Shown: positions 7,236 to 24,242 of the stretch, piece by piece
Layout of the letters: each line of letters opens with the position of its first letter
Numbering within the stretch: position 1 is the stretch's first letter
Assembly: GCF_003231495.1 (NCBI RefSeq)
Contig: NZ_PQWO01000023.1
Span: forward strand, 1-32,000
Direction of reading: 5' to 3'
DNA: 32,000 nt
DNA from: Acaryochloris thomasi RCC1774
GTDB taxonomy: Bacteria > Cyanobacteriota > Cyanobacteriia > Thermosynechococcales > Thermosynechococcaceae
Position numbers and translations under genes: made by a program
The notes under the pieces: generated by a model
Seen by the model: the letters and a program-made list of their open reading frames with translations, nothing else
The model's database searches: none
Told to the model about the DNA's origin: nothing

Positions 7236-7252
7236 TTTCACTTTCGTTTTAT
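7236..7252 (+). promoter_or_regulatory. Class I direct-repeat box (TTTCAC-N5-TTTTAT) upstream of the RND efflux operon.
   Basis: agTTTCACtttcgTTTTATttttctatga aligns with aaTTTCATttgtgTTTTATtttcatga at 13409-13431. Confidence 0.4.
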
Positions 7253-7478: not shown

Positions 7479-9221
7479 ATGTGTCTTGTTTCCCGTAAAC
7501 CACTTGCAACCGCAGTTGCCTCAGGCATACTCATCGGTTGCCTTACGACTCTAGGAGTCGCGCCTTCCCTTGCAGGGGCAGGCCACAATCACGGAAATGA
7601 GTTTGAAACGGGTGGCAATACGGGCGGGCCTAAGAGCGTTGAGGTGAACGCTGACATTTCCAAGCGCATTGGCATCAAGATTGAGCCTGCTGGACAGCAG
7701 CGGATTGGTGTCGGCATTAAAGCCACAGGACAAATTGAAACCCAGCCGAATCGTCAGGCTAATGTGACGATTCCGACTCCAGGCACCGTCGTTGAACTTT
7801 TAGTGAAACCTGGAGATCGCGTCAAAAAGGGCCAGCCTGTAGCAGTGATATCTAGCCTAGAGCTACTGCAATTACGAGTTGAATCCCTCGACAGACGCAC
7901 AGATGCAGAAGTCACCCTGAGAGAAGCACAGGCAAACTTGCGGCTTGCCCAGGAAAACTTAACCCGTGAGCGTCAAATTGCTGCCACTGAAATCGCTCAG
8001 GCACAAACGCAACTGGCCGAAGCCCAGGAACGCTACGACGGAGATGCCCGTTTGGTGTCTGAAGGGGCATTACCCCGTCGTCAGATGCTGACCTCCAAGA
8101 CCCAACTTGCCGAAGCGAAAGCAGCGTTGAACAAAAACGAGAGTCGTCAAGCAGTTCTTAGAGCCGAAGCAGAACTAAAACGAACTTCAGCAGCAGTCGC
8201 AGGGGCCAATCAGCGTGTAGGGCTAAGTGGAACCACATATCAGACGCGGCTGAGACAACTACGAACGCCCTCCAATCAACAAGGTTTAGTGGTGGTTCAG
8301 GCTCCCATTGCAGGCACGATCGCCAAGCGGGAGGTCACTCTAGGGGCGTCCTTTGAAGATGCGGGGGGGCAACTGATGACCATTGTGAACGATGCTGAAG
8401 TCTGGGCAGCGGCCAACGTTTATGAGAAAGATCTTGATCAGTTAAGCCGAGGTCAACCCATCAGAATGCAGGTGTCTAGCCTGCCGGGAGAAATCTTCAA
8501 TGGGCAGATTGTTCAAATTGATCCCGTGGTTGCAGGCGAAACTCGGGTGGTCCCTGTTCGAGCCAGCGTCAGCAATCCCCGCAACAAACTCAAGCCAGGG
8601 ATGTTTGCGGAGCTGGAGATTATGACAGGGCGTACTTCTACCGCGACGACCGCCATTCCTTCGGGGGGACTGGTGGAAGTCAATAACCAGTCCTTCGTTT
8701 ATGTGGAAAATGGCAAAGGTCGGTTTGAGCCAGTAAAAGTTGAGCTGGGCGAAACCTTTGGCGGCTGGGTTGCAATCAAGCGGGGCCTTTTTGATGGCGA
8801 TCGCATCGTCACGCAAGGGGCCATGATGCTCTATGCTCAATCGCTGCAGGGTGGGAGTCAAGCCTCAGAAGATGACGGACATGATCACTCTGAAGACGAT
8901 GGACATGATCACGGCAGTGAAGCAGCCGCGACTCCCTCAGGTTTTTCGCTGCTGAGTACGGGCAACGTTCCCTGGTGGATCGTGGTGCCCACTGGGGGAG
9001 CGATCGCGGCTGGGGCCTATCTAGCAGGACGCCGGGGTCGCTCCGGTTCGGGTGAGCCGGATCCAGACTTGACTCAGACGGCTGAGGAGAACGGCCAGAT
9101 GCTAAGGGACGGTGTGCCTGAGACTGACTTTGTTCTTAATGGAGAAGCCTCCTCTGATGCAGCAGAACCGTCATCCGTTGCTGATGAAGCGGCAAGCAAG
9201 CAACACCAGGAGTCAGCCTAG
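7479..9221 (+). CDS. Efflux RND periplasmic adaptor (membrane fusion protein, CusB/HlyD-like) with an atypical C-terminal His-rich repeat, extra TM helix and acidic tail.
   Basis: It has an N-terminal anchor with a possible lipobox (LIGC), a long coiled-coil hairpin region (AEVTLREAQANLRLAQENL...) and beta-barrel/MPD-like motifs. It lies directly upstream of the RND pump gene. EDDGHDHS occurs twice at nt 8868-8915, and a predicted TM helix is at nt 8967-9029. Confidence 0.9.
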   Translation: MCLVSRKPLATAVASGILIGCLTTLGVAPSLAGAGHNHGNEFETGGNTGGPKSVEVNADISKRIGIKIEPAGQQRIGVGIKATGQIETQPNRQANVTIPTPGTVVELLVKPGDRVKKGQPVAVISSLELLQLRVESLDRRTDAEVTLREAQANLRLAQENLTRERQIAATEIAQAQTQLAEAQERYDGDARLVSEGALPRRQMLTSKTQLAEAKAALNKNESRQAVLRAEAELKRTSAAVAGANQRVGLSGTTYQTRLRQLRTPSNQQGLVVVQAPIAGTIAKREVTLGASFEDAGGQLMTIVNDAEVWAAANVYEKDLDQLSRGQPIRMQVSSLPGEIFNGQIVQIDPVVAGETRVVPVRASVSNPRNKLKPGMFAELEIMTGRTSTATTAIPSGGLVEVNNQSFVYVENGKGRFEPVKVELGETFGGWVAIKRGLFDGDRIVTQGAMMLYAQSLQGGSQASEDDGHDHSEDDGHDHGSEAAATPSGFSLLSTGNVPWWIVVPTGGAIAAGAYLAGRRGRSGSGEPDPDLTQTAEENGQMLRDGVPETDFVLNGEASSDAAEPSSVADEAASKQHQESA

Positions 9222-9281
9222 TGTCAGAAGCTCTCCTTTGGTCTGAGTATTGGTCGGCAGTGAAGCGTTTCTAGATCCCTT

Positions 9282-12200
9282 ATGTTAAATGCCGTCCTGA
9301 AATGGTCTATTGCCCAGCGCTGGTTGATTGTGATCGGCGCAATTATCGTGACGGTTTGGGGACTGTTGACCGTTTCCAAGATGCCGTTGGATGTGTTCCC
9401 TAACTTTGCGCCCCCACAGGTGGATGTGCAAACAGAGGCACCTGGGCTAGCCCCGGAAGAAGTGGAGTCTTTAGTGACCTTTCCCATCGAGAGCGCCGTC
9501 AATGGAACGCCGGGGGTCGATATTGTCCGGTCCTCGTCCGGTGTCGGGATTTCGGTGGTTCAGATCACATTTAACTGGGGAACGGATGTTTACCTGGCTC
9601 GGCAACTGGTCTCAGAACGGCTGCAGCAAGTGACCAGTCAGCTCCCTAATGGAGTTGAGATCCCTCAAATTTCGCCGCTGTCTTCCCCTATCGGTACAGT
9701 TTTAACCTATGCCTTCACGATTGCGGATGGAGGCAAAACCACACTCATGGATGTTCGCAACCTCGTTGATCTTGAGATTACCAATCAACTGTTGGCTGTT
9801 CCCGGTGTAACCCAGGTGCTCTCCTACGGGGGCGAAACCCGCCAGTATCAGGTTTTAGTCGATCCAGCCAAATTGAGAGCCTATGATATCACCTTGGCAG
9901 AAGTGACGCAGGCCGTCGAAGAGGCCAATACCAACGCAGGGGGGGGCTTTTTGATTACCCCCGACCGAGAGTATTTAATTCGCGGCCTCGGTCGCATCCA
10001 ATCGGTGGAGGCACTGCAGGAATCTGTGGTAACTGCCCGTGATGGGGTGCCAGTCCTGCTGGGTAATGTGGCTGATATTCAAATTGGGGCGGCCCTGAAG
10101 CGAGGAGATGCCAGCGCCAATGGCAAAGCAGCCATTGTGATGATGGTGAATAAGCAGCCGCTTTCGGATACGCCCACAGTCACCCGAGCAGTGGAAGCCC
10201 AGATGGAGACCATTAAGGCGGGGTTGCCGGAAGATGTGGAGGTGACGGCCACGTTTCGCCAGTCTGATTTTATTGATGCTTCGATTCAGAACGTCACCAG
10301 CTCCCTGCGGGACGGCATCATCATTGTGGCGATTGTGCTGCTGTTGTTTTTGATGAACTGGCGCACAGCAGTAATGGCTTTGAGCGCTATCCCTCTGTCT
10401 CTACTGATTGGTCTGAGCATCCTGAATCTATTTGGTCTGGGAATCAACACCATGACGTTAGGGGGACTGGCTGTGGCGATCGGTTCTGTTGTTGATGATG
10501 CCATTGTCGATATGGAAAATTCCTATCGACGTATCCGGGAAAATCAACTGGCAGGCACCCCCATTCCCCCATTGCAGGTGGTGTATAACGCCTCCAGAGA
10601 AGTGCGGGTGAGTGTTTTATTCTCGACCATTATCATCGCGGTTATTTTCGCACCCATCTTTACCTTGACTGGGATTGAAGGCAAAATCTTTGCCCCGATG
10701 GGCTTTGCCTATCTCCTTTCAATTTTCTCGTCCACCTTTGTAGCCCTGACGCTCTCTCCCGCGCTCTCTGCCCTGCTGCTCTCGAATCACAAACTACCAG
10801 CGGTGGAAACCTGGCTTGCCCGAACCGCAAAGCGTCTGTATCAACCGCTGTTACAGTTCTCCCTTAGCCGAGCCAAAGTCGTTCTGATGATTGCGGTGGC
10901 ACTATTTGTCGCTTCGATGCTAGTGTTGCCCACGCTAGGTCGCGTATTTCTACCGGAGTTTCAGGAGCGTTCTTTGGTGAATACGATGACACTCTATCCC
11001 GGCAGCTCTCTAGAACTCACCAGTCGGGCCGGACTCGCCATTCAAGATTTGCTCAGAGACGATCCTCTGTTTGATTCAGTGCAGCTTAGGGCGGGTCGGG
11101 TGTCGGGGGATGCTGATGCCGCCAGCGTTTCATTTGGTCATGTTGATGTGGAAATTAGTGAAGCTGGGATGAAAGACCGAGAGGCCACTATTGAGACGTT
11201 ACGTGAGACGTTTGCTCAAATTCCAGGAGTTGTTCCAGGGATTGGCGGCTTCATTTCTCACCGCATTGATGAAATTCTGTCCGGGGTGAGAAGCGCGATC
11301 GCCATCAAGATTTTCGGACCAGACTTAGACGAGCTGCGCTCCCTTGGTACCCAGATACAGACTGCCATCAGCGAAGTGCCGGGACTGGTTGATTTACAGC
11401 TCGAACCCCAAGTGGACATCAAACAGCTTCAGATTGAATTCGACCGTCAAGCCGCTGCCCGCTATGGCTTAACGGTGGGCCAACTTGCAGAAACGGTCGA
11501 AACAGCCTTCAATGGACGCGCTGTATCACAAGTGCTAGAAGGGCAGCAGCTCTTCGATCTATTGGTCTGGTTGCAGGAATCAGATCGCAGCAACCTCGAT
11601 ACAATTCGCAACCTGTTGGTTGATACCCCCAGCGGGACGAAAATACCGCTGGCACAGGTAGCCGATATCAGCTTTGGCACTGGCCCCAACACAATTAACC
11701 GTGAAAATGTGCTGCGCCGCTTCATCGTGTCAACCAACGTTGCCAATCGAGACTTAGGCAGTGCCGTCGAAGAAATTAAAGCTACCGTAGCCCAAGAGGT
11801 GGAGCTGCCAGAGGGATACTTCATTCAGTACGGCGGTCAGTTTGAGTCAGAGCAGCGAGCGTCCCAAAACCTGATCACCTTTGGATTTCTGGCGCTGGTG
11901 GTGGTGGCCGTGATGATGTATTTTGCCGTCAAGTCTGTCCCCGCCACGGTGATGATTATGCTTAACCTACCCCTGGCCCTATCGGGTGGTATCTTTTCCG
12001 TCGCCTTGGGCGGGGGCATTCTCTCCGTAGCGTCAATGGTGGGCTTTATCACTCTGTTTGGTGTGGCGACCCGCAATGGCTTGCTATTGGTGGACAACTA
12101 TAACAATAAATTTGCCGAGGGCAAGTCGATCCAAGCAGGCGTGATGGAGGGATCGACAGAACGCCTGGAAGCGATCTTGATGACGGCCTTAACCTCAGCG

Positions 12201-12431
12201 CTCGGAATGCTGCCCCTTGTCATTGGGGCTGGGGCAGGCAAGGAAATTCTGCAACCGCTAGCGGTTGTGGTGTTGGGGGGCCTGTTCACCTCCACCGCCC
12301 TGACTCTGGTACTCTTGCCCGCGCTATATGCTCAGTTCGGTCGATTCTTGCGCCCTAAGGCTGATCCAGCAACCAGACAACCCGAACATGAAGCCGACGT
12401 ACAGAAGCATGATTTGACCCTGAAGCAATGA
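9282..12431 (+). CDS. CusA/CzcA-family heavy-metal efflux RND permease, 1049 aa.
   Basis: It shows the typical 12-TM RND architecture. The N-terminus (LNAVLKWSIAQRWLIVIGAIIVTVWG) and the TM4 motif AIGSVVDDAIVDMEN resemble the CusA-type AIGxxVDxAIVxxEN signature. The C-terminus contains ATRNGLLLV. Confidence 0.95.
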   Translation: MLNAVLKWSIAQRWLIVIGAIIVTVWGLLTVSKMPLDVFPNFAPPQVDVQTEAPGLAPEEVESLVTFPIESAVNGTPGVDIVRSSSGVGISVVQITFNWGTDVYLARQLVSERLQQVTSQLPNGVEIPQISPLSSPIGTVLTYAFTIADGGKTTLMDVRNLVDLEITNQLLAVPGVTQVLSYGGETRQYQVLVDPAKLRAYDITLAEVTQAVEEANTNAGGGFLITPDREYLIRGLGRIQSVEALQESVVTARDGVPVLLGNVADIQIGAALKRGDASANGKAAIVMMVNKQPLSDTPTVTRAVEAQMETIKAGLPEDVEVTATFRQSDFIDASIQNVTSSLRDGIIIVAIVLLLFLMNWRTAVMALSAIPLSLLIGLSILNLFGLGINTMTLGGLAVAIGSVVDDAIVDMENSYRRIRENQLAGTPIPPLQVVYNASREVRVSVLFSTIIIAVIFAPIFTLTGIEGKIFAPMGFAYLLSIFSSTFVALTLSPALSALLLSNHKLPAVETWLARTAKRLYQPLLQFSLSRAKVVLMIAVALFVASMLVLPTLGRVFLPEFQERSLVNTMTLYPGSSLELTSRAGLAIQDLLRDDPLFDSVQLRAGRVSGDADAASVSFGHVDVEISEAGMKDREATIETLRETFAQIPGVVPGIGGFISHRIDEILSGVRSAIAIKIFGPDLDELRSLGTQIQTAISEVPGLVDLQLEPQVDIKQLQIEFDRQAAARYGLTVGQLAETVETAFNGRAVSQVLEGQQLFDLLVWLQESDRSNLDTIRNLLVDTPSGTKIPLAQVADISFGTGPNTINRENVLRRFIVSTNVANRDLGSAVEEIKATVAQEVELPEGYFIQYGGQFESEQRASQNLITFGFLALVVVAVMMYFAVKSVPATVMIMLNLPLALSGGIFSVALGGGILSVASMVGFITLFGVATRNGLLLVDNYNNKFAEGKSIQAGVMEGSTERLEAILMTALTSALGMLPLVIGAGAGKEILQPLAVVVLGGLFTSTALTLVLLPALYAQFGRFLRPKADPATRQPEHEADVQKHDLTLKQ

Positions 12432-12465: not shown

Positions 12466-12792
12466 ATGCCGAGCACGACCACCTGGAAACAGCTAACCAT
12501 TCACACCAGTGAGTCCAGCCACTGGAAGCACCAACCCCTCTACCAAGAAATACTGGGGATGGCTCGTCAGCAAGAGTTGATGGGGGTAACGGTCATGCAG
12601 GCTATTGCAGGGTATGGCAAGCATGGTGTATTCCGCACTCTCAATGTGCTGGACGCAGCCTCTGAGTCCTCTGATTTACCGCTTGTCATTACTGTCATTG
12701 ATCGAGAGGATATCATTTCTCATTTCTATACCTCGCTGCAGCCTTTGCTCAAAAATACATTTGTCACCTGTCAAACGATTGAAGTTTGGTAG
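12466..12792 (+). CDS. DUF190 (UPF0166, PII-like fold) domain protein.
   Basis: The 108-aa sequence fits the DUF190 pattern (LTIHTSESSHWKHQPLYQEILGMARQQELMGVTVMQAIAGYGKHG...DLPLVITVID). It lies 34 nt after the RND gene. Confidence 0.8.
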   Translation: MPSTTTWKQLTIHTSESSHWKHQPLYQEILGMARQQELMGVTVMQAIAGYGKHGVFRTLNVLDAASESSDLPLVITVIDREDIISHFYTSLQPLLKNTFVTCQTIEVW

Positions 12793-12832: not shown

Positions 12833-13342
12833 ATGCGCCATTATCTAAACGTTCCTGTCTTTTTGAGCCTATGTCTGTTGGTGTTGCCTTTGACTGCCTG
12901 CAGCAGCAGCACTCCCCAAAGCACGTCCGCTGAAACCGAACATTCTGCCGATGATGGCCACGACCACTCAAAAGATGGAGAAGAACACTCTGCCGATGAC
13001 GGACATGACCATAGTGAACATGAGCTGCATTCCAAGGGTGGTCAGGTGGTTGAATCAGACCCTTACCATATTGAGCTGGTCACGAAACCCAAAGACGATG
13101 GAACTCAGCTCAACTTATATCTTCTCCATGAAGCGGAAGAGCGAGTGATTACCGATGCCCAAGTGACAGCCAACGTTCAGCAACCAGACGGGGAGCAACA
13201 AACTGTCAAGTTGATTTACAAGCCTGCCGAAGAAGGCTACACGGGCTTACTGGCTGCGCAAGCCACAGGCCAATACGATTTAGTCGTGCAAACTGATATT
13301 GGCGGCGAAAAGATTAACAGCCGATTTAGTATCGAGAGATGA
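12833..13342 (+). CDS. His-rich periplasmic lipoprotein with a beta-sandwich-like (YtkA/FixH-like) C-terminal domain.
   Basis: The ATG at 12833 is preceded by AAGGAG. The signal peptide carries a lipobox (LPLTAC). HSADDGHDHS occurs twice, followed by EHELH (nt 12938-13030). I reject the longer ORF-track start at 12605 because it overlaps the DUF190 gene and has no signal logic. Confidence 0.8.
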   Translation: MRHYLNVPVFLSLCLLVLPLTACSSSTPQSTSAETEHSADDGHDHSKDGEEHSADDGHDHSEHELHSKGGQVVESDPYHIELVTKPKDDGTQLNLYLLHEAEERVITDAQVTANVQQPDGEQQTVKLIYKPAEEGYTGLLAAQATGQYDLVVQTDIGGEKINSRFSIER

Positions 13343-13408: not shown

Positions 13409-13431
13409 TTTCATTTGTGTTTTATTTTCAT
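13409..13431 (+). promoter_or_regulatory. Class I direct-repeat box (TTTCAT-N5-TTTTAT-TTTCAT) upstream of the small peptide 1 / DUF2808 / RR1 / HK1 genes.
   Basis: The block of about 28 nt is conserved with 7236-7264. It lies 44 nt upstream of the peptide ATG. Confidence 0.4.
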
Positions 13432-13474
13432 GACATAGGCTGATCACTATCAGTTCATACAGTTGTAAAAAGTC

Positions 13475-13675
13475 ATGAAAACCAGTAGAGCCTTCATGGG
13501 TATTCTGTTGACAATATTGATGTCAGGGATGCTTTTGCCAAGCCGAGCCTCAGCTAAATCTATTGTTGTCTGTGGACCTAATGGGGCTGCTCGAATTGTT
13601 GATCAGGTGCCGGTTGGTTGCCACATCTTGAAGGCAAATACACCACCGAAGAGCAGCTCTAACTCTAGCTCATAA
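13475..13675 (+). CDS. Small secreted Cys/His peptide, copy 1: 66-aa precursor, about 39-aa mature part.
   Basis: It has a canonical Sec signal (MKTSRAFMGILLTILMSGMLLPSRASA|KS). The mature part IVVCGPNGAARIVDQVPVGCHILKANTPP is conserved with the second copy at 24482-24700 despite many synonymous codon differences. Confidence 0.7.
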   Translation: MKTSRAFMGILLTILMSGMLLPSRASAKSIVVCGPNGAARIVDQVPVGCHILKANTPPKSSSNSSS

Positions 13676-13907
13676 TATTCTGGCGGTGTGCTGACAGTCC
13701 TCAAAAGTCGATTGTCGGCACATCGCCAATAAATTGAGTTAATACCCTCTGAATAGTCTATCTTTTACATTTTTTCAGGATGGACTTTTAGAAGTGACGG
13801 TGCGACTGTTGCTAGAAATTTTAGCAGTAAGCAGTTTATATTTTTGTTTTTCAATATTACCGAAATTCATCATAAATCGACTTACCAAGGTTCACAGAGA
13901 GAGAAAA

Positions 13908-14378
13908 ATGTTTAAATTATCAACAATAGTACTTGCTGGGGGATTATTCCTAGCTTCAGTACCGACCTGGGCTGCGACGATTCAAGATGCTCCAGTCCCC
14001 TATCTAACCTCTAGTCGCTCGGTTCCACGGAATGCCCTTGCTCCCTTTGCAAAATATCAGTTTGGGCTAAATGTTTCGGGGTATCCCGTCTCCCAGCTCT
14101 CAATTGGCCTCCCAGAGCGAATGACGGTTGGCAGGATCTCTGTTCGAGGTGCAGACGGACAGGTGATTGAGGCATCAACGATGGTCGAAGATCGAACTGC
14201 CGTGATTAAGTTTGCTCAGCCTGTCTCACCCGGTACCGCACTCAGAGTTGAGCTATCCTCTGTTCGCACCCTGTCAATGTTGGGTCGGGTATGGCTGATG
14301 CCCGTCACTGTTCGTGGGACTGAATCAGCTAAGGACTTGTCGGTTGGGATGGCCCGCATCCACACTTACAACAATTGA
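13908..14378 (+). CDS. Secreted DUF2808-like protein (a family I recall as cyanobacteria-restricted).
   Basis: The ATG at 13908 gives a signal peptide (MFKLSTIVLAGGLFLASVPTWA|AT). The body (YQFGLNVSGYPVSQLSI...VIKFAQPVSPGTALRVELSSV...MARIHTY) matches my recollection of the DUF2808 pattern. The ORF-track GTG start at 13794 is rejected. Confidence 0.7.
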   Translation: MFKLSTIVLAGGLFLASVPTWAATIQDAPVPYLTSSRSVPRNALAPFAKYQFGLNVSGYPVSQLSIGLPERMTVGRISVRGADGQVIEASTMVEDRTAVIKFAQPVSPGTALRVELSSVRTLSMLGRVWLMPVTVRGTESAKDLSVGMARIHTYNN

Positions 14379-14448
14379 CGTGGCTGTTTTCTGATGGACC
14401 AGCAAGAGAACAGACAATGGATCTGGTGCTAGGGAGGGTTCTATTGGA

Positions 14449-15153
14449 ATGCGGATTCTTCTCGTTGAGGATGAGGTCGATCTGGCGGCGGCGATTAAGC
14501 GTAGCCTGTCGCGAGAGAAGTATGTGGTTGACTGGGCACAGGATGGAACCCAAGCTTGGGACTATCTTGAGAACCCGCATGTCAACTATTCTCTAGCAAT
14601 TTTTGACTGGCTGCTGCCGGGGTTATCGGGGATAGAACTCTGTCAGCGACTTAGGCAGTCAAAATCCTGCTTGCCTGTGCTAATGCTGACGGCCAAGGAG
14701 CGCATGGAAGATAAGGTGGCTGGCCTGGATGCGGGAGCGGATGATTACCTCGTCAAACCCTTTGAAATGGGGGAACTCAAGGCGAGATTGCGGGCGCTGC
14801 AGCGGCGATCGCCTCAGCTTCAGGCACAGCAGTTACAGGTAGGGCAGCTCCTCCTAGACTATGGCACCGCAACCGTCTCTGTGCAGGGTGAAGCGGTGAC
14901 TGCCTCGGTCATACCGCTGACGGCAAAAGAGTTCCAGTTGCTAGAGTACTTTATGAAGCATCCCAATCAGATTATCCCTCGGGAGCAGTTAATGAACCAG
15001 GTCTGGGAAATCGAGGCAGATCCAACCAGTAATGTTGTTCCAGCGCAGATGCGTCTCCTGCGACGGAAGCTAGCAGACTATGGTTTAGGGGACTCACTCG
15101 ACACCATCTATGGTCTGGGATATCGTCTCAACCCTTCCCATGCCTCAACGTAA
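14449..15153 (+). CDS. OmpR-family response regulator (CopR/NrsR-like), paralog 1.
   Basis: The receiver domain (MRILLVEDE...AIFDWLLPGLSG...LMLTAK) is followed by a winged-helix output domain (LTAKEFQLLEYFMKHP...GLGYRL). AGGGAGGG lies upstream of the ATG. Confidence 0.95.
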   Translation: MRILLVEDEVDLAAAIKRSLSREKYVVDWAQDGTQAWDYLENPHVNYSLAIFDWLLPGLSGIELCQRLRQSKSCLPVLMLTAKERMEDKVAGLDAGADDYLVKPFEMGELKARLRALQRRSPQLQAQQLQVGQLLLDYGTATVSVQGEAVTASVIPLTAKEFQLLEYFMKHPNQIIPREQLMNQVWEIEADPTSNVVPAQMRLLRRKLADYGLGDSLDTIYGLGYRLNPSHAST

Positions 15154-16486
15154 TCCCTTCAATCGCACCCGCTGGCGCTTGACTGGCTACTATGCAGGGG
15201 TCATGGGCATTATTCTGGCCCTCTGTGGAGTTGGCTACTATCAAATCACTGAGCAGATGCGGCTACAGGCACTGACGCAAAAAATTGAATCATCATCAGG
15301 AATATTGCACGACAGTCTAGGCTCAGTATTGCTCCAACCCGGACGCCTGAATGCATCTGTAGAAGGGTTACTCCCTGGTCTGTGCAAACCAACGGTCACC
15401 TGCCCAGAACCAGACCGTTTTGCCAGAAGACACGTCCTGGGACTGGTCAAACAGGATGTCTACTATGCCCAATTGAAAAATTTGTCGGGTCAGACTGTGG
15501 CCACGTTGGGGCCATCAGCGAACTATATCCCAGACAAAACAGTTCTTGACGGTTGGCAGATCTTCACAAATAGCAGTGGAGAGCGTTTTATGCAGTATTC
15601 GTTGCTGCTGGAGACGGTCGATCATAAGAACTGGGGCTATCTGCAGGTGGGCCGATCGCTCAGTGAGCTGGATCAAGAATTAGCCGAGGCCCAGCGGTTT
15701 CTACTGTGGGGGTGGCCTCTTGTGATGCTAGTTGTCTGCGGGGCTGGGTGGTGGTTAGCCGGACTATCCCTACGGCCTGTACAGAATGCATACCAAGATA
15801 TGCAACGATTTACCGCCAATGCAGCCCATGAGTTACGCACTCCACTATCGGCAGCCAAAGCAACGGTTGACTCTGTCCTAGAGCTGGACAATATCTCAGA
15901 GGGGGAAGCTCGAAAAACGCTAGGGACGATCAATCGGCAGGTCAATCGACTGACTCAATTGGTCCAGGATTTGCTGCTGCTGACGCTGATTGATACTCAA
16001 CACAACCGCAAGGGCAATCGCAAAGCTTGTCAGCTAGGGTTGATCATTAACGATGTGATGGATGAATTTCTTGCCCTAGCCCATAATGCTGGTTTATCCC
16101 TGGTTGCGGAATTGGACACGACTCACCCTCTATTTGTACAGGGGGATGAAGAACAGCTTTACCAGATGATTGCCAATCTGGTGATCAATGCGATTCACTA
16201 CACGCCTCGGGGTGGCGATGTGGTGATTCGACTCGACCGAGATAAAAAATATGCCTTCGTCGAGGTTCGAGATACGGGAATTGGCATCCCAGCCGAACAA
16301 CAGGCTCAGGTGTTTACCCGTTTCTATCGAGTGAATCGCGATCGCAACCGCAAAACTGGCGGTTCAGGATTGGGCTTGGCGATTGCCCAGGCGATAGCGC
16401 TTAAACATAGAGGCAAGATCTCGGTCCAGAGCCATCCTAATCGAGGCAGCACCTTTTGTATTTATCTGCCAGTTTTACTTTCGTAG
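15140..16486 (+). CDS. Sensor histidine kinase (CopS-like), paralog 1.
   Basis: It has two TM helices flanking a periplasmic loop of about 150 aa, an H-box (AAHELRTPL) and N/G boxes (NAIHYTP, DTGIGI, GGSGLGLAI). The ATG at 15140 aligns with the paralog start (MPQRNPFNRTRWRL vs MNEIKLFRQTRWRL) and overlaps the regulator gene by 14 nt. Confidence 0.9.
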   Translation: MPQRNPFNRTRWRLTGYYAGVMGIILALCGVGYYQITEQMRLQALTQKIESSSGILHDSLGSVLLQPGRLNASVEGLLPGLCKPTVTCPEPDRFARRHVLGLVKQDVYYAQLKNLSGQTVATLGPSANYIPDKTVLDGWQIFTNSSGERFMQYSLLLETVDHKNWGYLQVGRSLSELDQELAEAQRFLLWGWPLVMLVVCGAGWWLAGLSLRPVQNAYQDMQRFTANAAHELRTPLSAAKATVDSVLELDNISEGEARKTLGTINRQVNRLTQLVQDLLLLTLIDTQHNRKGNRKACQLGLIINDVMDEFLALAHNAGLSLVAELDTTHPLFVQGDEEQLYQMIANLVINAIHYTPRGGDVVIRLDRDKKYAFVEVRDTGIGIPAEQQAQVFTRFYRVNRDRNRKTGGSGLGLAIAQAIALKHRGKISVQSHPNRGSTFCIYLPVLLS

Positions 16487-17793: not shown

Positions 17794-17824
17794 GCCTAAA
17801 CCCTACAGTTCACTAGAGAGTCAA
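17794..17824 (-). promoter_or_regulatory. MerR-type promoter/operator upstream of the glutaredoxin-MauE gene.
   Basis: On the minus strand the sequence is TTGACT, 19 bp, then TTAGGC. The spacer is ACTCTCTAG-TGAA-CTGTAGGGT, and the 15-mer CATTGACTCTCTAGT is identical to the ATPase site. Confidence 0.6.
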
Positions 17825-17854
17825 TGCTGTGGCTGAATTGCAATTTGCATGACG

Positions 17855-19894
17855 CTAAGCTAACTTTGCTCGACGCAACATCACGGCATTAATTGAAACG
17901 ATGACGGTGGATAGGCTCATCAGCAGTGCGCCTACTGCAGGCGAAAGCAAAAAGCCCCATCGATAAAGCACCCCAGCCGCTAAAGGAATAGCGAGGATGT
18001 TATAGCTCGTCGCCCAAAACAGATTCTGAATCATCTTGCTGTAGGTTTTCTTCGCTAGATTTAGCGCTTTAACTGCATCCAGCGGGTCGTCTTCAATCAG
18101 CACCAGATCTGCCGACTCAATCGCTACATTTGTCCCGGCCCCAATTGCCAGCCCCATATTGGCCTCTAGCAGCGCTGCCGCATCGTTGACGCCATCGCCG
18201 ACAAAGGCCGTTGGGCCTTCCTGCTTCAGTTCTCGAATCCGGTTCACCTTATCTTCGGGCAGAACACGAGCGTAGTAGCGATCAATGCCAATCTCCTCAG
18301 CAACGGTGCGGGCAACAGCTTCAGCATCGCCGGTAATCATGACCGTCTGAATGTCCATTTGCTTGAGTTGATGGACGGTTTCTTTAGCCCGTTGGCGGAC
18401 TTGATCCGCCATTGAAATCACGGCCACGGCCTGCTGTTCGTCCATCAAGACTACAGCGCTTTCCCCGCGCTCATCCGCTCGATCCAGTCCTCTTTGCAGT
18501 GAGGATGGTAGCTTCACCTGCTGTTCTTTCACCCACTCGGGACGGCCAATACGATAGGTTTTACCGTTGACCCTGCCTTGTACACCTCGACCCGTGATGG
18601 TCTCGAAATCTTTCATGGCTGGGATATCAAGACTTTTCTGTTCTGCTGCTTCAACAATCGCCTGAGCTAGGGGATGCTCTGAGGAAGTTTCTAGAGCAGT
18701 TGCGATCGCCAACGCCTTCAGTTCATCCAGACCCTCGGCATAGACGTTCTGAACCCCGAAGTGTCCTTCCGTCAGGGTGCCCGTTTTATCAAAGGCCATT
18801 GTTTTGATATCTTTGGCCCGTTCTAAAGAATCACGGTTTCTCACTAAGATCCCGTTTTTTGCGGCCAATGCAGTCGAGTTAGCAATCACCAGGGGAATAG
18901 CCAGTCCTAGAGCATGAGGGCAGGTAATCACCAGAACGGTGACAGCTCGATTGAGGGAGAACACCAGATCGCTAACGCTGAGCCAAATGATGAAGGTGAG
19001 GGTGCCGGATGCGATCGCAACCAACGTCAGCCAGTAAGCTGCTCGGTCTGCCAACGCCTGATAGCGACTGCGAGACGATTGGGCTTCATCAACCAAGCGC
19101 ATCATCTGATTAATCGTTGTCTCGTCACCAATCCGAGTCACCCGGACCTGAACGGACCCCTCTTGATTGACCGACCCAGCCACAACTTCATCGCCTTCTT
19201 GCTTAGAGACTGGCCGCGACTCTCCGGTCAGAAATGACTCATCGACTGCCGTCGTGCCTTCAATCACTTCCCCATCATTGGGAATTTGCTCCCCAGGACG
19301 AATCAGGATCACGTCTTTAGCCTGAATTTGGCTTACCGGGATATCTTCCACCCGATCATTTCGGAGACGGTGGGCCTCAGAAGGTACCAACTCCGCTAAA
19401 TTTTCCAGCGCTTTGCTGGCCCCCTGCACGGATGCCATCTCAACCCAGTGTCCTAGCAGCATAATGTCTACTAGGGTTGCCAGTTCCCAATAGAAGGGCT
19501 TGCCCTGCAGCCCCAGTGAAACCGCGAGACTGTAAACAAACGCCACCGTGATCGCCAGCGCGATCAGCGTCATCATTCCAATCTGACTATTAATTTCAGA
19601 CCAGGCACCTTTGAGGAAGACCCAGCCACCATAGAAGTAGATGGCAATTCCGAAGACAGGGTTAATCCAGTTAGAGCCAGCGAAGGTAACGGCCTGATAG
19701 CCGAACCAGCTTTGGAGCTGCATTGAGAAGTAGAGAATGGGCAGCGTCAAAATCAGACAGATGAAGAAACGACGCTTGAAAATATCAGGGTTGTGACCTG
19801 CATGTTTATCGTGACCGCCATGCCCCTTATGGTCATGATGGTGAGCCTGCTCTGATCCTTCTGTAGGGTGATGTGCCTGACTGGAGTGAGCCAT
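17855..19894 (-). CDS. Heavy-metal translocating P1B-type ATPase, CopB-like subtype (CPH motif, His-rich N-terminus).
   Basis: Motifs present: DKTGTLT, GDGVNDAAAL, TGES and the TM6 motif CPH (ITCPHALGLAIP). The N-terminus reads MAHSSQAHHPTEGSEQAHHHDHKGHGGHDKHAGH. Confidence 0.95.
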   Translation of the reverse strand: MAHSSQAHHPTEGSEQAHHHDHKGHGGHDKHAGHNPDIFKRRFFICLILTLPILYFSMQLQSWFGYQAVTFAGSNWINPVFGIAIYFYGGWVFLKGAWSEINSQIGMMTLIALAITVAFVYSLAVSLGLQGKPFYWELATLVDIMLLGHWVEMASVQGASKALENLAELVPSEAHRLRNDRVEDIPVSQIQAKDVILIRPGEQIPNDGEVIEGTTAVDESFLTGESRPVSKQEGDEVVAGSVNQEGSVQVRVTRIGDETTINQMMRLVDEAQSSRSRYQALADRAAYWLTLVAIASGTLTFIIWLSVSDLVFSLNRAVTVLVITCPHALGLAIPLVIANSTALAAKNGILVRNRDSLERAKDIKTMAFDKTGTLTEGHFGVQNVYAEGLDELKALAIATALETSSEHPLAQAIVEAAEQKSLDIPAMKDFETITGRGVQGRVNGKTYRIGRPEWVKEQQVKLPSSLQRGLDRADERGESAVVLMDEQQAVAVISMADQVRQRAKETVHQLKQMDIQTVMITGDAEAVARTVAEEIGIDRYYARVLPEDKVNRIRELKQEGPTAFVGDGVNDAAALLEANMGLAIGAGTNVAIESADLVLIEDDPLDAVKALNLAKKTYSKMIQNLFWATSYNILAIPLAAGVLYRWGFLLSPAVGALLMSLSTVIVSINAVMLRRAKLA

Positions 19895-19975: not shown

Positions 19976-20006
19976 ATCTAAATGCTCTAGTTAACTAGAG
20001 AGTCAA
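19976..20006 (-). promoter_or_regulatory. MerR-type promoter/operator upstream of the P-type ATPase gene.
   Basis: On the minus strand the sequence is TTGACT, 19 bp, then TTAGAT. The spacer holds ACTCTCTAG-TTAA-CTAGAGCAT, which includes a perfect 16-bp palindrome CTCTAGTTAACTAGAG (19985-20000). Confidence 0.7.
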
Positions 20007-20012
20007 TGATAT

Positions 20013-20591
20013 TTACTCGGAGCTTGAGGAAAAGTCTGGTAGCGGTCTCGCCTCTACCTCGGTGGGCGTGTCCACCTTTCCCTTATCTCTGATGTCAGCA
20101 ATCAGCCACTCCATCTCATTGATTTCTCTACGCTGCGCTTCGATAATTTCATCGGCCAATTCACGAACGCGAACATCCTTAATCTGGGCGCGTTCACTTG
20201 TCAAAATTGCAATGGAATGGTGAGGAATCATGCCTTCCATGTAGTCCACATCGCTGACCGTAACCTGGCTACGCACCAGCCATAATGCGGCTCCAAACAG
20301 TAGAATAGCGAGCGAGAAGATGGCGATGTTCATTTTTCTGCTCTTGTACATGTTCAGCATAAATCCCAGCATGATCACCATCATTGCAGCACCCATGATC
20401 AGGGCCATAAAGACCCGTGTTTCGCTGAACCACGCATGATCGAGAATTTGATAGGAATGCAGATACATTAAGAAGAACATCGTCACGATGGAGGTGCCAA
20501 TCATGGCAAAGAACTTGATGTAGCTACCCTGCATTTCATTGTGATGCCTGGTATCTGTATGGCTTCCAATTGTGCTGTCTCTGATAGTCAT
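20013..20591 (-). CDS. DUF305 domain membrane protein. DUF305 is the domain of Synechocystis CopM.
   Basis: Three N-terminal TM helices are followed by the DUF305 signature (MEGMIPHHSIAILTSERA...ELADEIIEAQRREINEMEWL). Confidence 0.85.
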   Translation of the reverse strand: MTIRDSTIGSHTDTRHHNEMQGSYIKFFAMIGTSIVTMFFLMYLHSYQILDHAWFSETRVFMALIMGAAMMVIMLGFMLNMYKSRKMNIAIFSLAILLFGAALWLVRSQVTVSDVDYMEGMIPHHSIAILTSERAQIKDVRVRELADEIIEAQRREINEMEWLIADIRDKGKVDTPTEVEARPLPDFSSSSE

Positions 20592-20726: not shown

Positions 20727-21062
20727 TTACTTTGCAACGCTAGCGATTTGGCGATAGGCGTCAGCCGATGTACGACAGGCTTGAGCACACTTTTTGCAGT
20801 GTTCCATCTCGTACTGTTCACACTCTTGGGCGCAGGCTTCGCAAATGTCAGCACAGGCTCTGGAAAGATGAGAGACAAAGTAGGAGCCTCGAACCATAAA
20901 AGTCGCTGCCGTGCGGCAGATTTCAGCGCAGTCTAAGCAAGTGCGGGCACACTTGATCATTTCTGGCTCTCCGATGCAGGCTTCAGCGCAGTGTTCGCAT
21001 TCCACCATGCACTTCATCGATTTATCGAAGCTGGATTGGTATTCTTCGTGATTTAACAGCAT
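20727..21062 (-). CDS. Cys-rich four-helix-bundle copper-binding protein (DUF326/Csp-like).
   Basis: The 111-aa protein has repeated CxxxC/CxxC motifs on predicted helices (CMVECEHCAEAC, CARTCLDCAEIC, CADICEACAQEC, CKKCAQAC) and no signal peptide. Confidence 0.85.
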   Translation of the reverse strand: MLLNHEEYQSSFDKSMKCMVECEHCAEACIGEPEMIKCARTCLDCAEICRTAATFMVRGSYFVSHLSRACADICEACAQECEQYEMEHCKKCAQACRTSADAYRQIASVAK

Positions 21063-21195
21063 GTTTTCTCCCTGGATAGACTTTTGAAGCGAAATTCGTC
21101 GTCATTCGCACCTTAAGTTTTCTTTCTCAGGGGCGCGTCCACCAGAAGTTGGAAAGGTGAAATCCATCAAAATCTATCGAATTAAATAGGGTGAT

Positions 21196-21216
21196 CTCAT
21201 CCTGATTTCATATTTG
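21196..21216 (+). promoter_or_regulatory. Class II direct-repeat box (TCTCAT-N5-TTTCAT), copy a. It lies in the divergent region between the csp-like gene and the DUF2933 gene.
   Basis: tctcatcctgatttcatattt differs by 1 nt from the copy at 24881. The hexamers have 11-bp spacing, as expected for OmpR-family binding sites. Confidence 0.5.
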
Positions 21217-21488: not shown

Positions 21489-21689
21489 ATGTCTAGACAT
21501 CCTCCCTTGAGATGGCGGTGGCGGTCTCCGGCTGGAATCGCGCTGCTAGTCTGTCTGGGAATAGTTGCCTTTTTGCTAGTGGCGAAAGCTCCTGTTCTGC
21601 CTTGGCTTTTCCTGCTTATTTGCCCACTGATGCACTTGTTCATGCATGGCGACCATGCTGGAAAAGGTAAACACAGCCAAGATCACTGA
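21489..21689 (+). CDS. DUF2933 family small membrane protein.
   Basis: It has two TM helices and the characteristic CPLMHLFMHGDH motif followed by a His-rich tail. GGGGAG lies 7 nt upstream of the ATG. Confidence 0.75.
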   Translation: MSRHPPLRWRWRSPAGIALLVCLGIVAFLLVAKAPVLPWLFLLICPLMHLFMHGDHAGKGKHSQDH

Positions 21690-21727
21690 GGAAGAGGTTC
21701 AAAATAAAGAGAACTCATTCTTCTGTC

Positions 21728-21759
21728 TTGACCCTATAGTCTACTGTAGAGTCTAAGGT
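21728..21759 (+). promoter_or_regulatory. MerR-type promoter/operator upstream of the merR-RR2-HK2 genes.
   Basis: The sequence is TTGACC, a 19-20 bp spacer, then (C)TAAGGT. The spacer contains the dyad ACCCTATAG-TCTA-CTGTAGAGT (7 of 9 complementary). It lies 30 nt upstream of the merR ATG. Confidence 0.7.
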
Positions 21760-21788: not shown

Positions 21789-22205
21789 ATGGCTGTCGCA
21801 ACACGCTTAAGGATCGGTGAGGTTTCTAAGCGAACTAGCATTGCTGTCGGGGCTTTACGCTATTACGAAAGTCTGGGTCTACTCCAGTCAGAGCGGGGGG
21901 ACAATGGCTATCGCTATTATCCTGAAGAAGCTGTGCAGCAGGTGCAGTTCATCAAAAAGGCACAGGCTTTGGGCTTCTCCCTAGAGGATATCCATGAGGT
22001 GCTGAATGTTCATCGGCAGGGAGACGTGCCCTGTGAGTTTGTCCAATCGCTTCTGCAGGAAAAGATTGAGCAGCTTGAAGCTCAAATTCAGAAGATGACG
22101 GCCTTCAAAGTAGAGCTGGAGGACTATCAAGATCGTTGGGCCACCCGTCAGCCCCGCCCCCAACCGGGCGATATCTGCCCCCTCATCTCAACAGTTACGT
22201 TGTAA
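21789..22205 (+). CDS. MerR-family heavy-metal-responsive transcriptional regulator.
   Basis: N-terminal HTH (LRIGEVSKRTSIAVGALRYYESLGLL), a dimerisation helix, and candidate metal-binding Cys residues (GDVPCEF and GDICPL). A MerR-type promoter lies directly upstream. Confidence 0.9.
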   Translation: MAVATRLRIGEVSKRTSIAVGALRYYESLGLLQSERGDNGYRYYPEEAVQQVQFIKKAQALGFSLEDIHEVLNVHRQGDVPCEFVQSLLQEKIEQLEAQIQKMTAFKVELEDYQDRWATRQPRPQPGDICPLISTVTL

Positions 22206-22210
22206 CCCTC

Positions 22211-22912
22211 ATGCGAGTCCTACTGGTCGAAGATGAGCCGGACTTAGGCGCTGCCATTGCGCGAACCCTTGCCCAAGAAGCCTATATCGTAGACTGGGCC
22301 AAAGATGGTTTAGAGGCTTGGGGTTATCTAGACAGCCAGTGGACGCAATATACCCTGGCGATTTTTGATTGGCTATTGCCAGAGATATCTGGCGTTGAGC
22401 TATGTCAACGCCTCCGTGCCCAGAACAGCTCCCTACCTGTATTGATGCTCACTGCAAAGGATCGCCCAGAAGATACAGCAGAGGGGCTAGATGCTGGAGC
22501 GGATGACTATCTCGTTAAACCCTTCCGTAAAATTGAACTACTGGCACGACTGCGGGCGCTGCAGCGGAGATCGCCCCATTTCCAACCCCAGCAGCTCCAA
22601 GTGGGTCAACTGACTTTAGACTACGGTACTCATCACGTTTCTATTGCCATTTCAGAAGGGCAAGCCCCCCAGAACATCCTGTTAACCCATAAAGAATTCC
22701 AGCTCTTAGAATATTTCATGCAGCATCCGACCCAGATTGTCAGCCGGGACCAGATCCTTAACCAGCTCTGGGGTTCTGAAGCCGATACCATTAGCAATGT
22801 GGTGGCTGCGCTCATGCGCCAACTGCGGCGGAAGCTCTCTGAACATGGCTGCGACAATGCGATTGAGACCCTCTACGGTATTGGCTATCGGCTCAACCTA
22901 GACCATGAATGA
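22211..22912 (+). CDS. OmpR-family response regulator (CopR/NrsR-like), paralog 2.
   Basis: By eye it is roughly 60% identical to the 14449-15153 product. The ATG at 22211 (MRVLLVEDE) lies 5 nt after the merR stop. The ORF-track start at 22136 overlaps merR and is rejected. Confidence 0.95.
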   Translation: MRVLLVEDEPDLGAAIARTLAQEAYIVDWAKDGLEAWGYLDSQWTQYTLAIFDWLLPEISGVELCQRLRAQNSSLPVLMLTAKDRPEDTAEGLDAGADDYLVKPFRKIELLARLRALQRRSPHFQPQQLQVGQLTLDYGTHHVSIAISEGQAPQNILLTHKEFQLLEYFMQHPTQIVSRDQILNQLWGSEADTISNVVAALMRQLRRKLSEHGCDNAIETLYGIGYRLNLDHE

Positions 22913-24242
22913 GATAAAGCTCTTTCGCCAGACGCGCTGGCGCTTGGCAAGCTGGTATGCCGGAGTGATGGGGATTATTCTTGTCCTGAGCGGTTTTGGG
23001 GTCTACGAAGCCATTGACCATGCTCACCGCACAGCGGCAGACCGAGAATTGCAGGCGTTCGCAGGCCGACTGCACGACAATCTAGAACCCACGCTACAGC
23101 AGCAAGGAGAAATCCCAGCTAGCGCTCAGCGCTTCCTCCCTGATGCCTGCATTCGTACCAGTCAATGTTTAGACGCTACTGCCAGTCACTCACCCGGAGA
23201 CATGTTCCAGGGCAACTATTTTATTCGGCTTCTGAGTCCCACAGGAGACCTTATTGTGCTGGCCGGACTGAAGCCACAGGGGTTAGCGATCACCTCACCC
23301 ACTGCTGAGTGGCAGTATCTGACAGATGAGCGCAGCATTCGCTACCGCCAAATTACAGTTCCTTTGCAGAATCTTGACACACCGCTTTGGGGGTACCTAC
23401 AGGTGGGCAGCTCTCTTGAGGATTCTGATCGATACCTCACATCGGTGAGATTTGCGCTCTTTGCTGGCTTTCCTCTAGCGCTAGCTTTTGTTGGAATCGC
23501 AGGCTGGTGGCTAGCGGGACGAGCTATGCAGCCCATTCGTCAGTCCTACCAGCAGATGCAGCAGTTCACTGCCGATGCAGCCCACGAGTTGCGAACCCCT
23601 ATTGCTGCAGCCCAGGCAACGGTGGAATCGGTGCTAGATACGCCACATTTATCGGAGACCGATGCCCGCGAAACCTTACAGGTTCTAGATCGACAGCATC
23701 AGCGACTGTCTCAACTGATTCAGGATTTGCTGTTGCTAACGCGCTTAGACCGTCAAGTGCAGACCCAGCAGAATGATTCATGCTGCCTTCAAGATGTGGT
23801 GAATGACATCGCGGAAGAGTTGGCAGCTCTAGCTTTGAACAACAAGGTCAAGCTTCTGACCGACATTCAGGTCGAGCAGCCACTGTGGGTCAACGGGGAT
23901 GAGGCGCAGCTCTACCGACTCGTGTTTAATTTAGTCATTAATGCACTGCAGCATACGCCTGAAGGCGGGGCAGTTACGCTTTTGCTGAATGAGCCAGACC
24001 AGCAGGCGGTAATCCAGGTGCAGGATACGGGGGTGGGAATTGCACCTGAATACCAAGCGAAGATCTTTGACCGCTTTTATCGGGTGAATAGCGATCGCAA
24101 CCGACAAACAGGTGGCTCGGGGTTGGGGTTAGCCATTGCTGATGCGATTGCTCAAGCTCATAAAGGCAAGATTCAGGTCCAAAGCCAACTGGGCCAAGGG
24201 AGTATCTTTAGGATTTATCTTCCGTCTGCAGAAACTCCCTAG
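22905..24242 (+). CDS. Sensor histidine kinase (CopS-like), paralog 2.
   Basis: The architecture matches 15140-16486, with H-box AAHELRTPI and G-box GGSGLGLAI. An ATGAATGA overlap joins it to the regulator gene. Confidence 0.95.
   Translation: MNEIKLFRQTRWRLASWYAGVMGIILVLSGFGVYEAIDHAHRTAADRELQAFAGRLHDNLEPTLQQQGEIPASAQRFLPDACIRTSQCLDATASHSPGDMFQGNYFIRLLSPTGDLIVLAGLKPQGLAITSPTAEWQYLTDERSIRYRQITVPLQNLDTPLWGYLQVGSSLEDSDRYLTSVRFALFAGFPLALAFVGIAGWWLAGRAMQPIRQSYQQMQQFTADAAHELRTPIAAAQATVESVLDTPHLSETDARETLQVLDRQHQRLSQLIQDLLLLTRLDRQVQTQQNDSCCLQDVVNDIAEELAALALNNKVKLLTDIQVEQPLWVNGDEAQLYRLVFNLVINALQHTPEGGAVTLLLNEPDQQAVIQVQDTGVGIAPEYQAKIFDRFYRVNSDRNRQTGGSGLGLAIADAIAQAHKGKIQVQSQLGQGSIFRIYLPSAETP

Follow-up and report, generated by a model that had tools for sequence, protein, structure and literature searches.

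A small exported two-cysteine peptide behind a CopR-type box: a candidate dispensable accessory of CopRS-type copper loci in Acaryochloris thomasi

We analysed a 32,000-nt stretch of Acaryochloris thomasi RCC1774 (contig NZ_PQWO01000023.1, positions 1 to 32,000; hereafter the window), in which a 66-codon gene (13475-13675, + strand) lies upstream of genes for a DUF2808 protein, a CopR-like OmpR-family response regulator (RR1) and a CopS-like histidine kinase (HK1). We modestly favour the reading that the product of this gene is a copper-induced, dispensable exported accessory, which takes the position that CopM holds in the Synechocystis copMRS operon and likely has the DUF2808 protein as its partner. 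That the gene is real, under CopR-type regulation and encodes an exported product is, taken jointly, highly probable in our judgement; a physical partnership between the peptide and the DUF2808 protein is, by itself, a tentative proposal. An earlier note on this DNA had suggested an accessory module of CopRS-type copper sensing. The exported and selected peptide, its position behind a CopR-type box and its linkage to CopRS and DUF2808 stood up to the analysis, whereas the proposed metal site and the input to the kinase did not.

The peptide gene is real and under strong purifying selection. The codon analysis covered nine sequences, i.e. both window copies (copy 2 is described below) and seven loci from other assemblies, over a 32-codon core. 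The pairwise comparisons gave 7-25 synonymous vs 2-14 non-synonymous differences, with dN/dS of 0.04-0.15 where dS was unsaturated. Between the two window copies, for which at least 12 synonymous codon differences had been claimed, we counted 19 synonymous and 12 non-synonymous differences over the 32 core codons, and the purifying selection first read from this pair was found across the orthologues. An alternative in which conservation lies in a 91-aa antisense open reading frame (ORF) or a non-coding RNA, and the peptide ORF is no gene, has next to no chance of being correct. Gene callers picked the antisense ORF in L021-L023, but the substitutions are codon-phased in the peptide frame with the counts given above, the signal peptide and its AxA motif are conserved, and more than 100 homologous clusters differ in their DNA sequences.

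The Sec signal originally assigned to the 66-codon product was evident. As export criteria, we used an n-region with Lys/Arg, a hydrophobic core of ~ 12-18 residues, and AxA at positions -3/-1; by sequence inspection and hydropathy, copy 1 satisfied all three. Its n-h-c signal peptide (13475-13555) has Lys/Arg residues in the N-terminus, an 18-residue uncharged core with the best 12-residue Kyte-Doolittle (KD) mean of 2.49 (2.2-2.6 among the intact copies), and an AxA motif, with cleavage between ASA and Lys. Among 64 family members, A25 (-3) is present in 61 and A27 (-1) in all. The mature part of 39 aa starts at 13556 and contains Cys33 and Cys49; the NCBI form of the peptide has 59 aa. In the AlphaFold2 (AF2) model, the peptide forms three short strands (residues 29-33, 39-42 and 49-52; core pLDDT ~ 76), with Cys33 at the end of strand 1 and Cys49 at the start of strand 3.

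The family to which the peptide belongs appears to be an undescribed, cyanobacteria-restricted group of Sec-exported mini-proteins. Pfam and NCBIfam scans with the peptide and several relatives gave no match, the PDB profile search with the peptide returned only a chance match (E 1.3), and Foldseek on the peptide model found nothing below E 3, in line with the initial statement that the family was not recognised. Homologues exist outside the source genome: the word-index protein search with the single peptide query returned three clusters, exhaustive phmmer 23 representative clusters (~ 20 convincing), and the profile search 107 clusters. All named members are cyanobacterial (Acaryochloris, Altericista, Thermosynechococcaceae and Petrachloros), and all are labelled "hypothetical". 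They share a core of ~ 35 residues with the consensus LVxCGPNGAAxIVxxVPxGC[R/H]xLxxNSPP, in which C33, G34, P46, G48 and C49 (C-x15-C) are invariant in the 64-member alignment. Copy 1 has this invariant core after a signal peptide ending in AxA, as the family is defined, and matched the family hidden Markov model with E 1.5e-25; the mature part of copy 2 matched with E 1.9e-22. There are at least two clades, a long one (~ 105 aa, with the C-terminal extension SRLGFTF) and a short one (60-75 aa), which includes the window peptide. Some members have Pro/Glu/Thr-rich linkers or two tandem domains.

Two further matches were rejected as relatives. P0004 (3949 aa, 17 matched stretches) is a Cys-less repeat protein whose common part is limited to the hairpin-like motif TVGANGVIRK, and we judged it convergent; P0023 was dismissed likewise. 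P0004 matches the peptide via 17 copies of the Cys-less motif SVLTVGANGVIRKISDS, which is probably a convergent β-hairpin with a G-x-N-G turn. An ORF in L005 (16737-17075) has several Cys-less GPNGAA/GPHGAA repeats, and the same metagenome contig also carries a family member with a long linker.

The direct-repeat box noticed earlier in front of the peptide gene (TTTCAT ttgtg TTTTAT TTTCATG; 13409-13432, + strand) starts 66 nt 5' of the ATG and was invariant in six orthologous loci. In the six-way alignment of locus 1, it was the sole invariant intergenic block and was kept even where the peptide gene is dead, which argues that the box would drive the whole DUF2808-RR-HK operon. The pattern TYTCAT-N5-TTTYAT matched the window four times (13409, 21195, 24323 and 24881, all on the + strand) vs 0.02 matches expected. 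The box at 21195-21211 (TCTCATCCTGATTTCAT) lies 5' of DUF2933-MerR-RR2-HK2, the box at 24323-24339 (TCTCATTCTGATTTCAT) starts 63 nt 5' of the ancestral ATG of peptide copy 2, and the box at 24881-24897 precedes genes for a multicopper oxidase (MCO; 25051-26880) and CopB (27357-28517). A box of the locus-1 type with one mismatch (7236-7252, + strand) is located 5' of the RND adaptor/pump operon (7479-12431). The pattern TTCAT-N11-TTCAT was also tried for the box and gave only chance-level matches.

The form of the window box matches the Synechocystis copM and copB promoters, which carry ATTTCATcctgATTTCAT and ATTTCATcttggTTTCAT and are reported to be bound directly by CopR (PMC4284471); the comparison was based on the pSYSX promoter sequences themselves and on the statement in this review. 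The TTTCAT direct repeat with an 11-bp period, expected at CopRS target promoters, is present in the window. Wherever a short-clade locus had sufficient sequence 5' of the gene, the best box match lay 62-72 nt before the ATG, with no mismatches in the window copies, L001, L017, L018, L020, L028 and L039, one in L019, and two in L003. A CopR-type box precedes the peptide, and co-regulation with the copper response is therefore well founded; the assignment of the short clade to the CopR regulon appears well supported. We found no box with 0 mismatches at any long-clade gene. The motif TCTAATACAnTTTTCAT, one mismatch from the CopR-type pattern, is conserved 80-98 nt 5' of long-clade genes (L006 and L012-L015) that have no metal context; it could be an OmpR-family box of a related type, or no more than a conserved promoter.

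The proteins encoded downstream agree with the box. RR1 is 63% identical to CopR encoded by Synechocystis pSYSX, and both HK1 and the second kinase, HK2, are 48% identical to CopS. The CX5C pair previously pointed out in the periplasmic loops of both kinases is present, aligned, and found also in Synechocystis CopS. These identities, together with the occurrence of CX5C in CopS itself, therefore justify the label "CopRS-type". As first described, the peptide gene is followed by a signal-peptide DUF2808 gene (13908-14378; 156 aa; Pfam PF10989), RR1 (14449-15153) and HK1 (15110-16486), all on the + strand, the regulator and the kinase being also recognised by Pfam.

The order RND-DUF190-YtkA-peptide-DUF2808-RR-HK of locus 1 is kept in Acaryochloris sp. 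CCMEE 5410, whose peptide is WP_139025826.1 (hypothetical), and in several metagenome and Sequence Read Archive contigs. Other arrangements are found elsewhere. L018 is an intact orthologue of the window's locus 2, with the order MerR-RR-HK-peptide-DUF2808 (159 aa)-MCO, L019 has peptide-DUF2808-MCO, and L003 peptide-DUF2808. In L039, the gene of a more distant variant (P0107) lies between genes for SPC-type and CPH-type P1B ATPases and adjoins a MerR gene, with no DUF2808; in L041, the gene of P0025 is 1.5 kb from a cupredoxin gene, and the surroundings of P0096 in L040 showed no metal context. The linkage of the short clade to CopRS-type systems, DUF2808 and copper genes, on which the original proposal depended, is thus seen in several independent contexts. 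The L039 variant (5929-6210; GCA_965192735.1, contig CBCZUK010000165.1) has 69 aa, VVAVCGPNGAVRIVDSDKVPVGCHV, and a CopR-type box; the CPH-type ATPase of this locus is His-rich, and a MerR-CbiC fusion and a DsbA gene are nearby.

The peptide gene is lost or damaged in two cases. In the P0127 lineage (contigs L024-L027), it is cut after 15 codons or partly deleted, with the box, DUF2808, RR and HK intact. Because this lineage lost the peptide and kept the box and DUF2808-RR-HK, the peptide gene appears to be dispensable in relatives.

The second case is in the window itself. The peptide had been said to recur at 24482-24700 next to the second CopRS paralogue. Its mature core is indeed present, but the copy (24386-24700, + strand) is not intact; it also adjoins HK2, but lies 3' of HK2 and 5' of the MCO gene, not 5' of its regulator. 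In the alignment with L018 and L017, the promoter and the ancestral ATG (24386) are conserved, and codon 3 is TAA (24392-24394). The signal-peptide coding region is split by a 119-bp insertion (24431-24549) resembling a miniature inverted-repeat transposable element, with terminal inverted repeats GGGCACCTCGAA / TTCGAGGTGCCC (12 nt perfect, 20 nt at 90%) and TGTA on either side. Its in silico removal restored the reading frame and a normal signal peptide; no further copies of the element were found in the window or in 38 other loci searched. The ATG at 24482 is inside the insertion, and the resulting N-terminus has a weak hydrophobic core, with a 12-residue uncharged run and the best 12-residue KD mean of 1.37. 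The part encoding the mature domain (24593-24700) is still intact, with dN/dS of 0.13 vs L018, and, since it is clean, either copy 2 was damaged recently or an impaired product is still made. Of the DUF2808 partner of copy 2, only the C-terminal 42 aa are left (24741-24869, + strand), vs the intact 159 aa of the L018 orthologue. The peptide and DUF2808 genes thus decayed together at locus 2, between intact HK2 and MCO genes.

These losses bear directly on the suggestion that the peptide feeds or modulates the sensor kinase. In such a model, the peptide, by itself or jointly with DUF2808, would be induced by the system and then tune its signalling as a feedback modulator that binds the CopS-like kinase at its periplasmic loop (cf. 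MgrB, CpxP and ZraP), possibly with thiol-disulfide exchange with CX5C. It draws on the position of the peptide gene as the first in the RR1-HK1 operon under a CopR-type box, on the conserved periplasmic CX5C of the kinases, and on DUF2808 genes located directly 5' of rppA-rppB in other cyanobacteria (described below). Nevertheless, the P0127 lineage lacks the peptide and keeps an intact DUF2808-RR-HK, and copy 2 is broken beside intact RR2-HK2. Moreover, the cassette in L018, L019 and locus 2 of the window carries a separate box and is placed before the oxidase gene rather than the kinase, no kinase is found near the L039 peptide, and Synechocystis CopS also has CX5C and functions in the absence of the peptide. 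The modulator role is weakened by this evidence, and we hold it to be decidedly unlikely.

The second part of the original proposal that changed was the metal site. The Cys pair of the proposed C-x15-CH motif is invariant in the 64 members, but the His is not conserved, with the residue after the second Cys being Arg in 38, His in 25, and Ser in one. Even among the orthologues of locus 1, we observed CH (window), CS (CCMEE 5410 and L001) and CR (L028). The His after the second Cys is variable, so there is no C-x15-CH site, and two paralogues with a common Cys/His pattern are too few for a metal site to be read from it. Both Cys residues are also invariant in the ~ 105-aa clade, whose contexts are not metal-related, and in the two tandem-domain proteins the second domain is Cys-less, with Val and Ala in place of the two Cys residues in P0006, and Thr and Ala in P0105. 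The loss of both Cys residues together in these second domains and their invariance in the non-metal clade suggest that Cys33-Cys49 may be a structural disulfide rather than a ligand pair.

In consequence, we regard as unlikely the alternative of a mature peptide that itself binds copper in the periplasm, as a mini-metallochaperone or buffer with Cys33 and Cys49 (and His50 where present) as Cu(I) ligands, and delivers copper to efflux or oxidase proteins or sequesters it. The boxed short-clade members found with CopRS, DUF2808 and MCO genes, or between P1B ATPases with MerR (L039), and the member near a cupredoxin gene (L041) would fit this role; the two Cys residues are the only invariant potential ligands, and a His follows the second Cys in 25 of the 64 members. 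Against it, residue 50 is Ser or Arg in same-locus orthologues and Arg in most of the family, and the peptide lacks Met and a second His. Outside metal contexts, the Cys pair is just as invariant, and in the oxidising compartment to which the protein is exported a disulfide is expected to form. No similarity to CusF, CopK, PcoE, CopC or Atx1 was detected by Pfam, NCBIfam, the PDB profile search or Foldseek.

Metal linkage appears to be limited to the short clade. A GTDB scan with a four-sequence alignment yielded no loci, and a second scan yielded 11, all of the long clade; within 10 kb of these 11 loci, there was no homologue of DUF2808, RR, HK or metal genes. It could therefore be argued that the peptide has no copper-specific role and is a generic secreted structural or surface mini-protein of Acaryochloris-type cyanobacteria, carried in mobile metal-resistance islands: most members (the ~ 105-aa clade) are in unrelated contexts, the islands are mosaic and transposase-rich, and the gene decays readily. 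We consider this very unlikely, as the box is at a fixed distance of 62-72 nt in several non-syntenic contexts and is absent, at 0 mismatches, from long-clade genes, and the copies within the islands are under strong purifying selection.

DUF2808, and not the peptide, appears to be the widely conserved companion of CopRS-like systems. The window protein (WP_110988444.1, named DUF2808 domain-containing protein) matched PF10989 with 29.3 bits vs a cutoff of 25.3, over profile positions 9-144 of 146. We inspected eight plasmid loci with this DUF2808 clade, none of which has the peptide. In four (Stanieria, Leptolyngbya, Gloeocapsa and Oscillatoria), one to three DUF2808 genes lie 5' of rppA-rppB on the same strand with no annotated gene between; rppA follows after 12-170 nt in Stanieria, Leptolyngbya and Oscillatoria, and after ~ 890 nt in Gloeocapsa, which has two DUF2808 genes. 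In two (Nostoc 7120 and Anabaena cylindrica), rppA is within 10 kb of DUF2808. In the remaining loci, DUF2808 precedes a TolC-RND operon (Nostoc punctiforme) or adjoins a TolC gene (Chroococcidiopsis). The box pattern is also present 5' of peptide-less plasmid DUF2808 genes of Nostoc 7120, Leptolyngbya NIES-3755, Gloeocapsa 7428, Stanieria 7437, Oscillatoria 7112 and Anabaena cylindrica.

The AF2 model of the DUF2808 protein is a nine-strand all-β sandwich (pLDDT 78, pTM 0.73). The fold search returned only generic Ig, pilin or adhesin domains (TM ~ 0.5), with no cupredoxin, CopC or CusF match, so no function was drawn from the fold. The alignment of 13 CopRS-linked DUF2808 proteins has no conserved Cys, Met or His. 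The peptide-less proteins of Gloeocapsa and Stanieria have four to six His residues in an N-terminal segment of the type SHLxHSxAHP...HHF.xHV, and the peptide-paired proteins of Acaryochloris locus 1 have none; the inverse trend between N-terminal His and the presence of the peptide is suggestive, but not clean. DUF2808 is described as a domain of unknown function found only in cyanobacteria (PMC6560206). The exoproteome of Nostoc 7120 included the DUF2808 protein All7597 (PMC10957091), which is also reported to rise under Cd stress (bioRxiv 10.1101/2022.09.23.509143); the latter report gives All7597 a MaoC_dehydratase-like domain and not DUF2808, in conflict with the former. In the searchable literature, we found neither the DUF2808-CopRS linkage nor DUF2808 in any copper context.

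Other small secreted proteins occur at these DUF2808 loci. A second family with repeated Cys pairs (C-x3-PIaEPsGGA[ST]R-x8-C, two repeats) is encoded in L035 (8003-8296; Gloeocapsa PCC 7428 plasmid) and L044 (5758-6072; Chroococcidiopsis CCNUC1 plasmid), between or after DUF2808 genes near rppA-rppB; the Gloeocapsa ORF is missing from the PLSDB gene table. Homology of this family to the peptide was rejected, with an hhalign profile-profile probability of 0.2%. In L034 (5273-5599; Leptolyngbya NIES-3755 plasmid1), a 108-aa secreted hypothetical protein with a C-terminal C-x21-C is encoded directly 5' of DUF2808-RR-HK, and its gene has its own CopR-type box (5104).

The mechanism we propose for the dispensable accessory is as follows. 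Copper excess would activate CopS and, through it, CopR; the phosphorylated CopR-like RR1 would then bind the TTTCAT-N5-TTTTAT box ~ 60 nt 5' of the ATG. The peptide, DUF2808, copR and copS genes would be transcribed as one autoregulated operon, with the peptide in place of copM in copMRS; at locus 2, the peptide-DUF2808 cassette would have its own box and face the pcoA-like oxidase gene. The precursor would be exported and cleaved after ASA, and the 39-aa product would fold into a small three-stranded sheet, most likely stapled by the Cys33-Cys49 disulfide. In the periplasm or extracellularly, the mature peptide would serve as a dispensable accessory or effector under copper stress, most probably as a partner of the co-encoded DUF2808 β-sandwich, rather than as a Cys2His site that handles copper by itself or as an input on which the kinase depends.

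Several points weigh against this reading. The function of the box is read from its similarity to the Synechocystis promoters. The peptide-DUF2808 partnership does not appear to be obligatory, as L039 has the peptide and the box without DUF2808, and many DUF2808-CopRS loci are without the peptide. The repeated recruitment to metal loci (CopRS, MCO, P1B ATPases and cupredoxin) would also fit direct metal chemistry, and the two thiols could bind Cu(I) instead of forming a disulfide. The AF2 model of the peptide has a mean pLDDT of 62, i.e. moderate confidence. Finally, a strong hairpin 3' of the peptide gene could uncouple it from the downstream genes. This hairpin (13682-13727, + strand) follows right after the peptide stop codon and has a 24-bp stem, -36.8 kcal/mol and a z of -7.2, without a U tract. 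L019 has a GC-rich hairpin in the matching place and the remaining orthologues only weak ones, and the sequence is not conserved in relatives; it is possibly a transcript-stabilising or attenuating element. We found no canonical intrinsic terminator on the + strand between the peptide and DUF2808 genes.

The window as a whole is a metal-resistance island. Upstream of the peptide gene, it encodes, on the + strand, an RND adaptor and a CusA-type pump (7479-12431; from the ORF list and Pfam), a DUF190 protein (12466-12792) and a YtkA-like His-rich lipoprotein (12833-13342), the conserved 5' neighbour of the peptide gene. This lipoprotein and the RND adaptor (8864-8923) have His/Asp-rich repeats of the DGHDHS type, encoded by common repeat DNA. 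Downstream of HK1, genes for a CPH-type P-type ATPase (17855-19894), a DUF305 protein (20013-20591) and a DUF326 protein (20727-21062) are on the - strand. These are followed on the + strand by DUF2933 (21489-21689), MerR (21789-22205), RR2 (22208-22912) and HK2 (22905-24242), and, after the locus-2 remnants, the MCO and CopB genes given above; a second MCO gene (29961-31451) is on the - strand. A palindromic box, CTAAAyyCTnnAGTTnACTAGAGAGTCAATG, occurs three times (17796-17826, 19978-20008 and 21727-21757) and precedes the CPH-type ATPase, DUF305 and MerR genes; MerR probably uses it as the operator of a second regulon, whose genes are interspersed with those of the CopR regulon. We must also note that the copper specificity of the window's CopRS-type system is taken only from its gene context, i.e. 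the RND pump, the two MCOs, CopB, the CPH-type ATPase and DUF305.

Copper handling in the cyanobacterial envelope is known mainly from one model, copMRS/copBAC of Synechocystis. In many other cyanobacteria, the CopM position is filled by DUF2808, joined in the Acaryochloris lineage by a two-Cys mini-protein, all behind a CopR-type box. Two families of unknown function would thereby gain a concrete and testable setting as copper-induced, exported and dispensable proteins, and the 39-residue peptide is compact enough for synthesis and direct tests. A broader idea, which we rate as quite unlikely, is that DUF2808 and small exported Cys-pair mini-proteins form an unrecognised periplasmic module of cyanobacterial CopRS-type systems that replaces or complements CopM. 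The mini-proteins would be the peptide family in Acaryochloris-type genomes and the unrelated PSGGA[ST]R family in Gloeocapsa and Chroococcidiopsis, each acting as a ligand responsive to redox state or copper, by which copper or thiol stress in the envelope would be signalled to DUF2808, to the CX5C loop of CopS, or to both. If the pair were indeed a general CopM-replacing or sensor-modulating module, its interest would be higher.

Small exported accessories in copper operons under two-component control are already known (CopM, CusF and PcoE), and, as far as the searchable literature shows, the peptide family and the DUF2808-CopRS linkage are undescribed. Like the proposed position of the peptide gene, copM is the first gene of an autoregulated operon with copR and copS. 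Both products have a signal peptide, both genes lie behind a TTTCAT-N5-TTTCAT-like box, and both would be accessories not needed for signalling. CopM alone confers resistance, and part of it is found outside the cell (PMC4335983); a DUF2808 protein was likewise found in the exoproteome of Nostoc 7120. In contrast, CopM has no sequence or domain relation to either protein, as neither the peptide nor the DUF2808 protein matched DUF305 in Pfam; CopM has demonstrated Cu(I) binding, whereas the peptide has no conserved ligand set, and the window has a separate DUF305 protein (20013-20591) under the MerR-type box. CusF, CopK and PcoE are also small, exported and encoded in copper-resistance clusters under two-component control. 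However, they bind copper via Met/His (and Trp) motifs, and the peptide has no Met, a variable His and a disulfide-like Cys pair, with no detected similarity to them in fold or sequence.

MgrB-PhoQ, CpxP-CpxA and ZraP-ZraS resemble our case in that the small protein is encoded under the control of the system it accompanies and is located on the periplasmic side, and MgrB depends on conserved periplasmic cysteines. The peptide differs in that it was apparently lost without loss of the two-component system, and in that it would be soluble after cleavage rather than anchored in the membrane. As for DUF2808 (PF10989), the gene downstream of the peptide encodes a member of the family; the window's clade differs from the family at large in that, on plasmids from many orders of cyanobacteria, it is tied to metal efflux and to CopRS/RppAB-like systems, behind CopR-type boxes.

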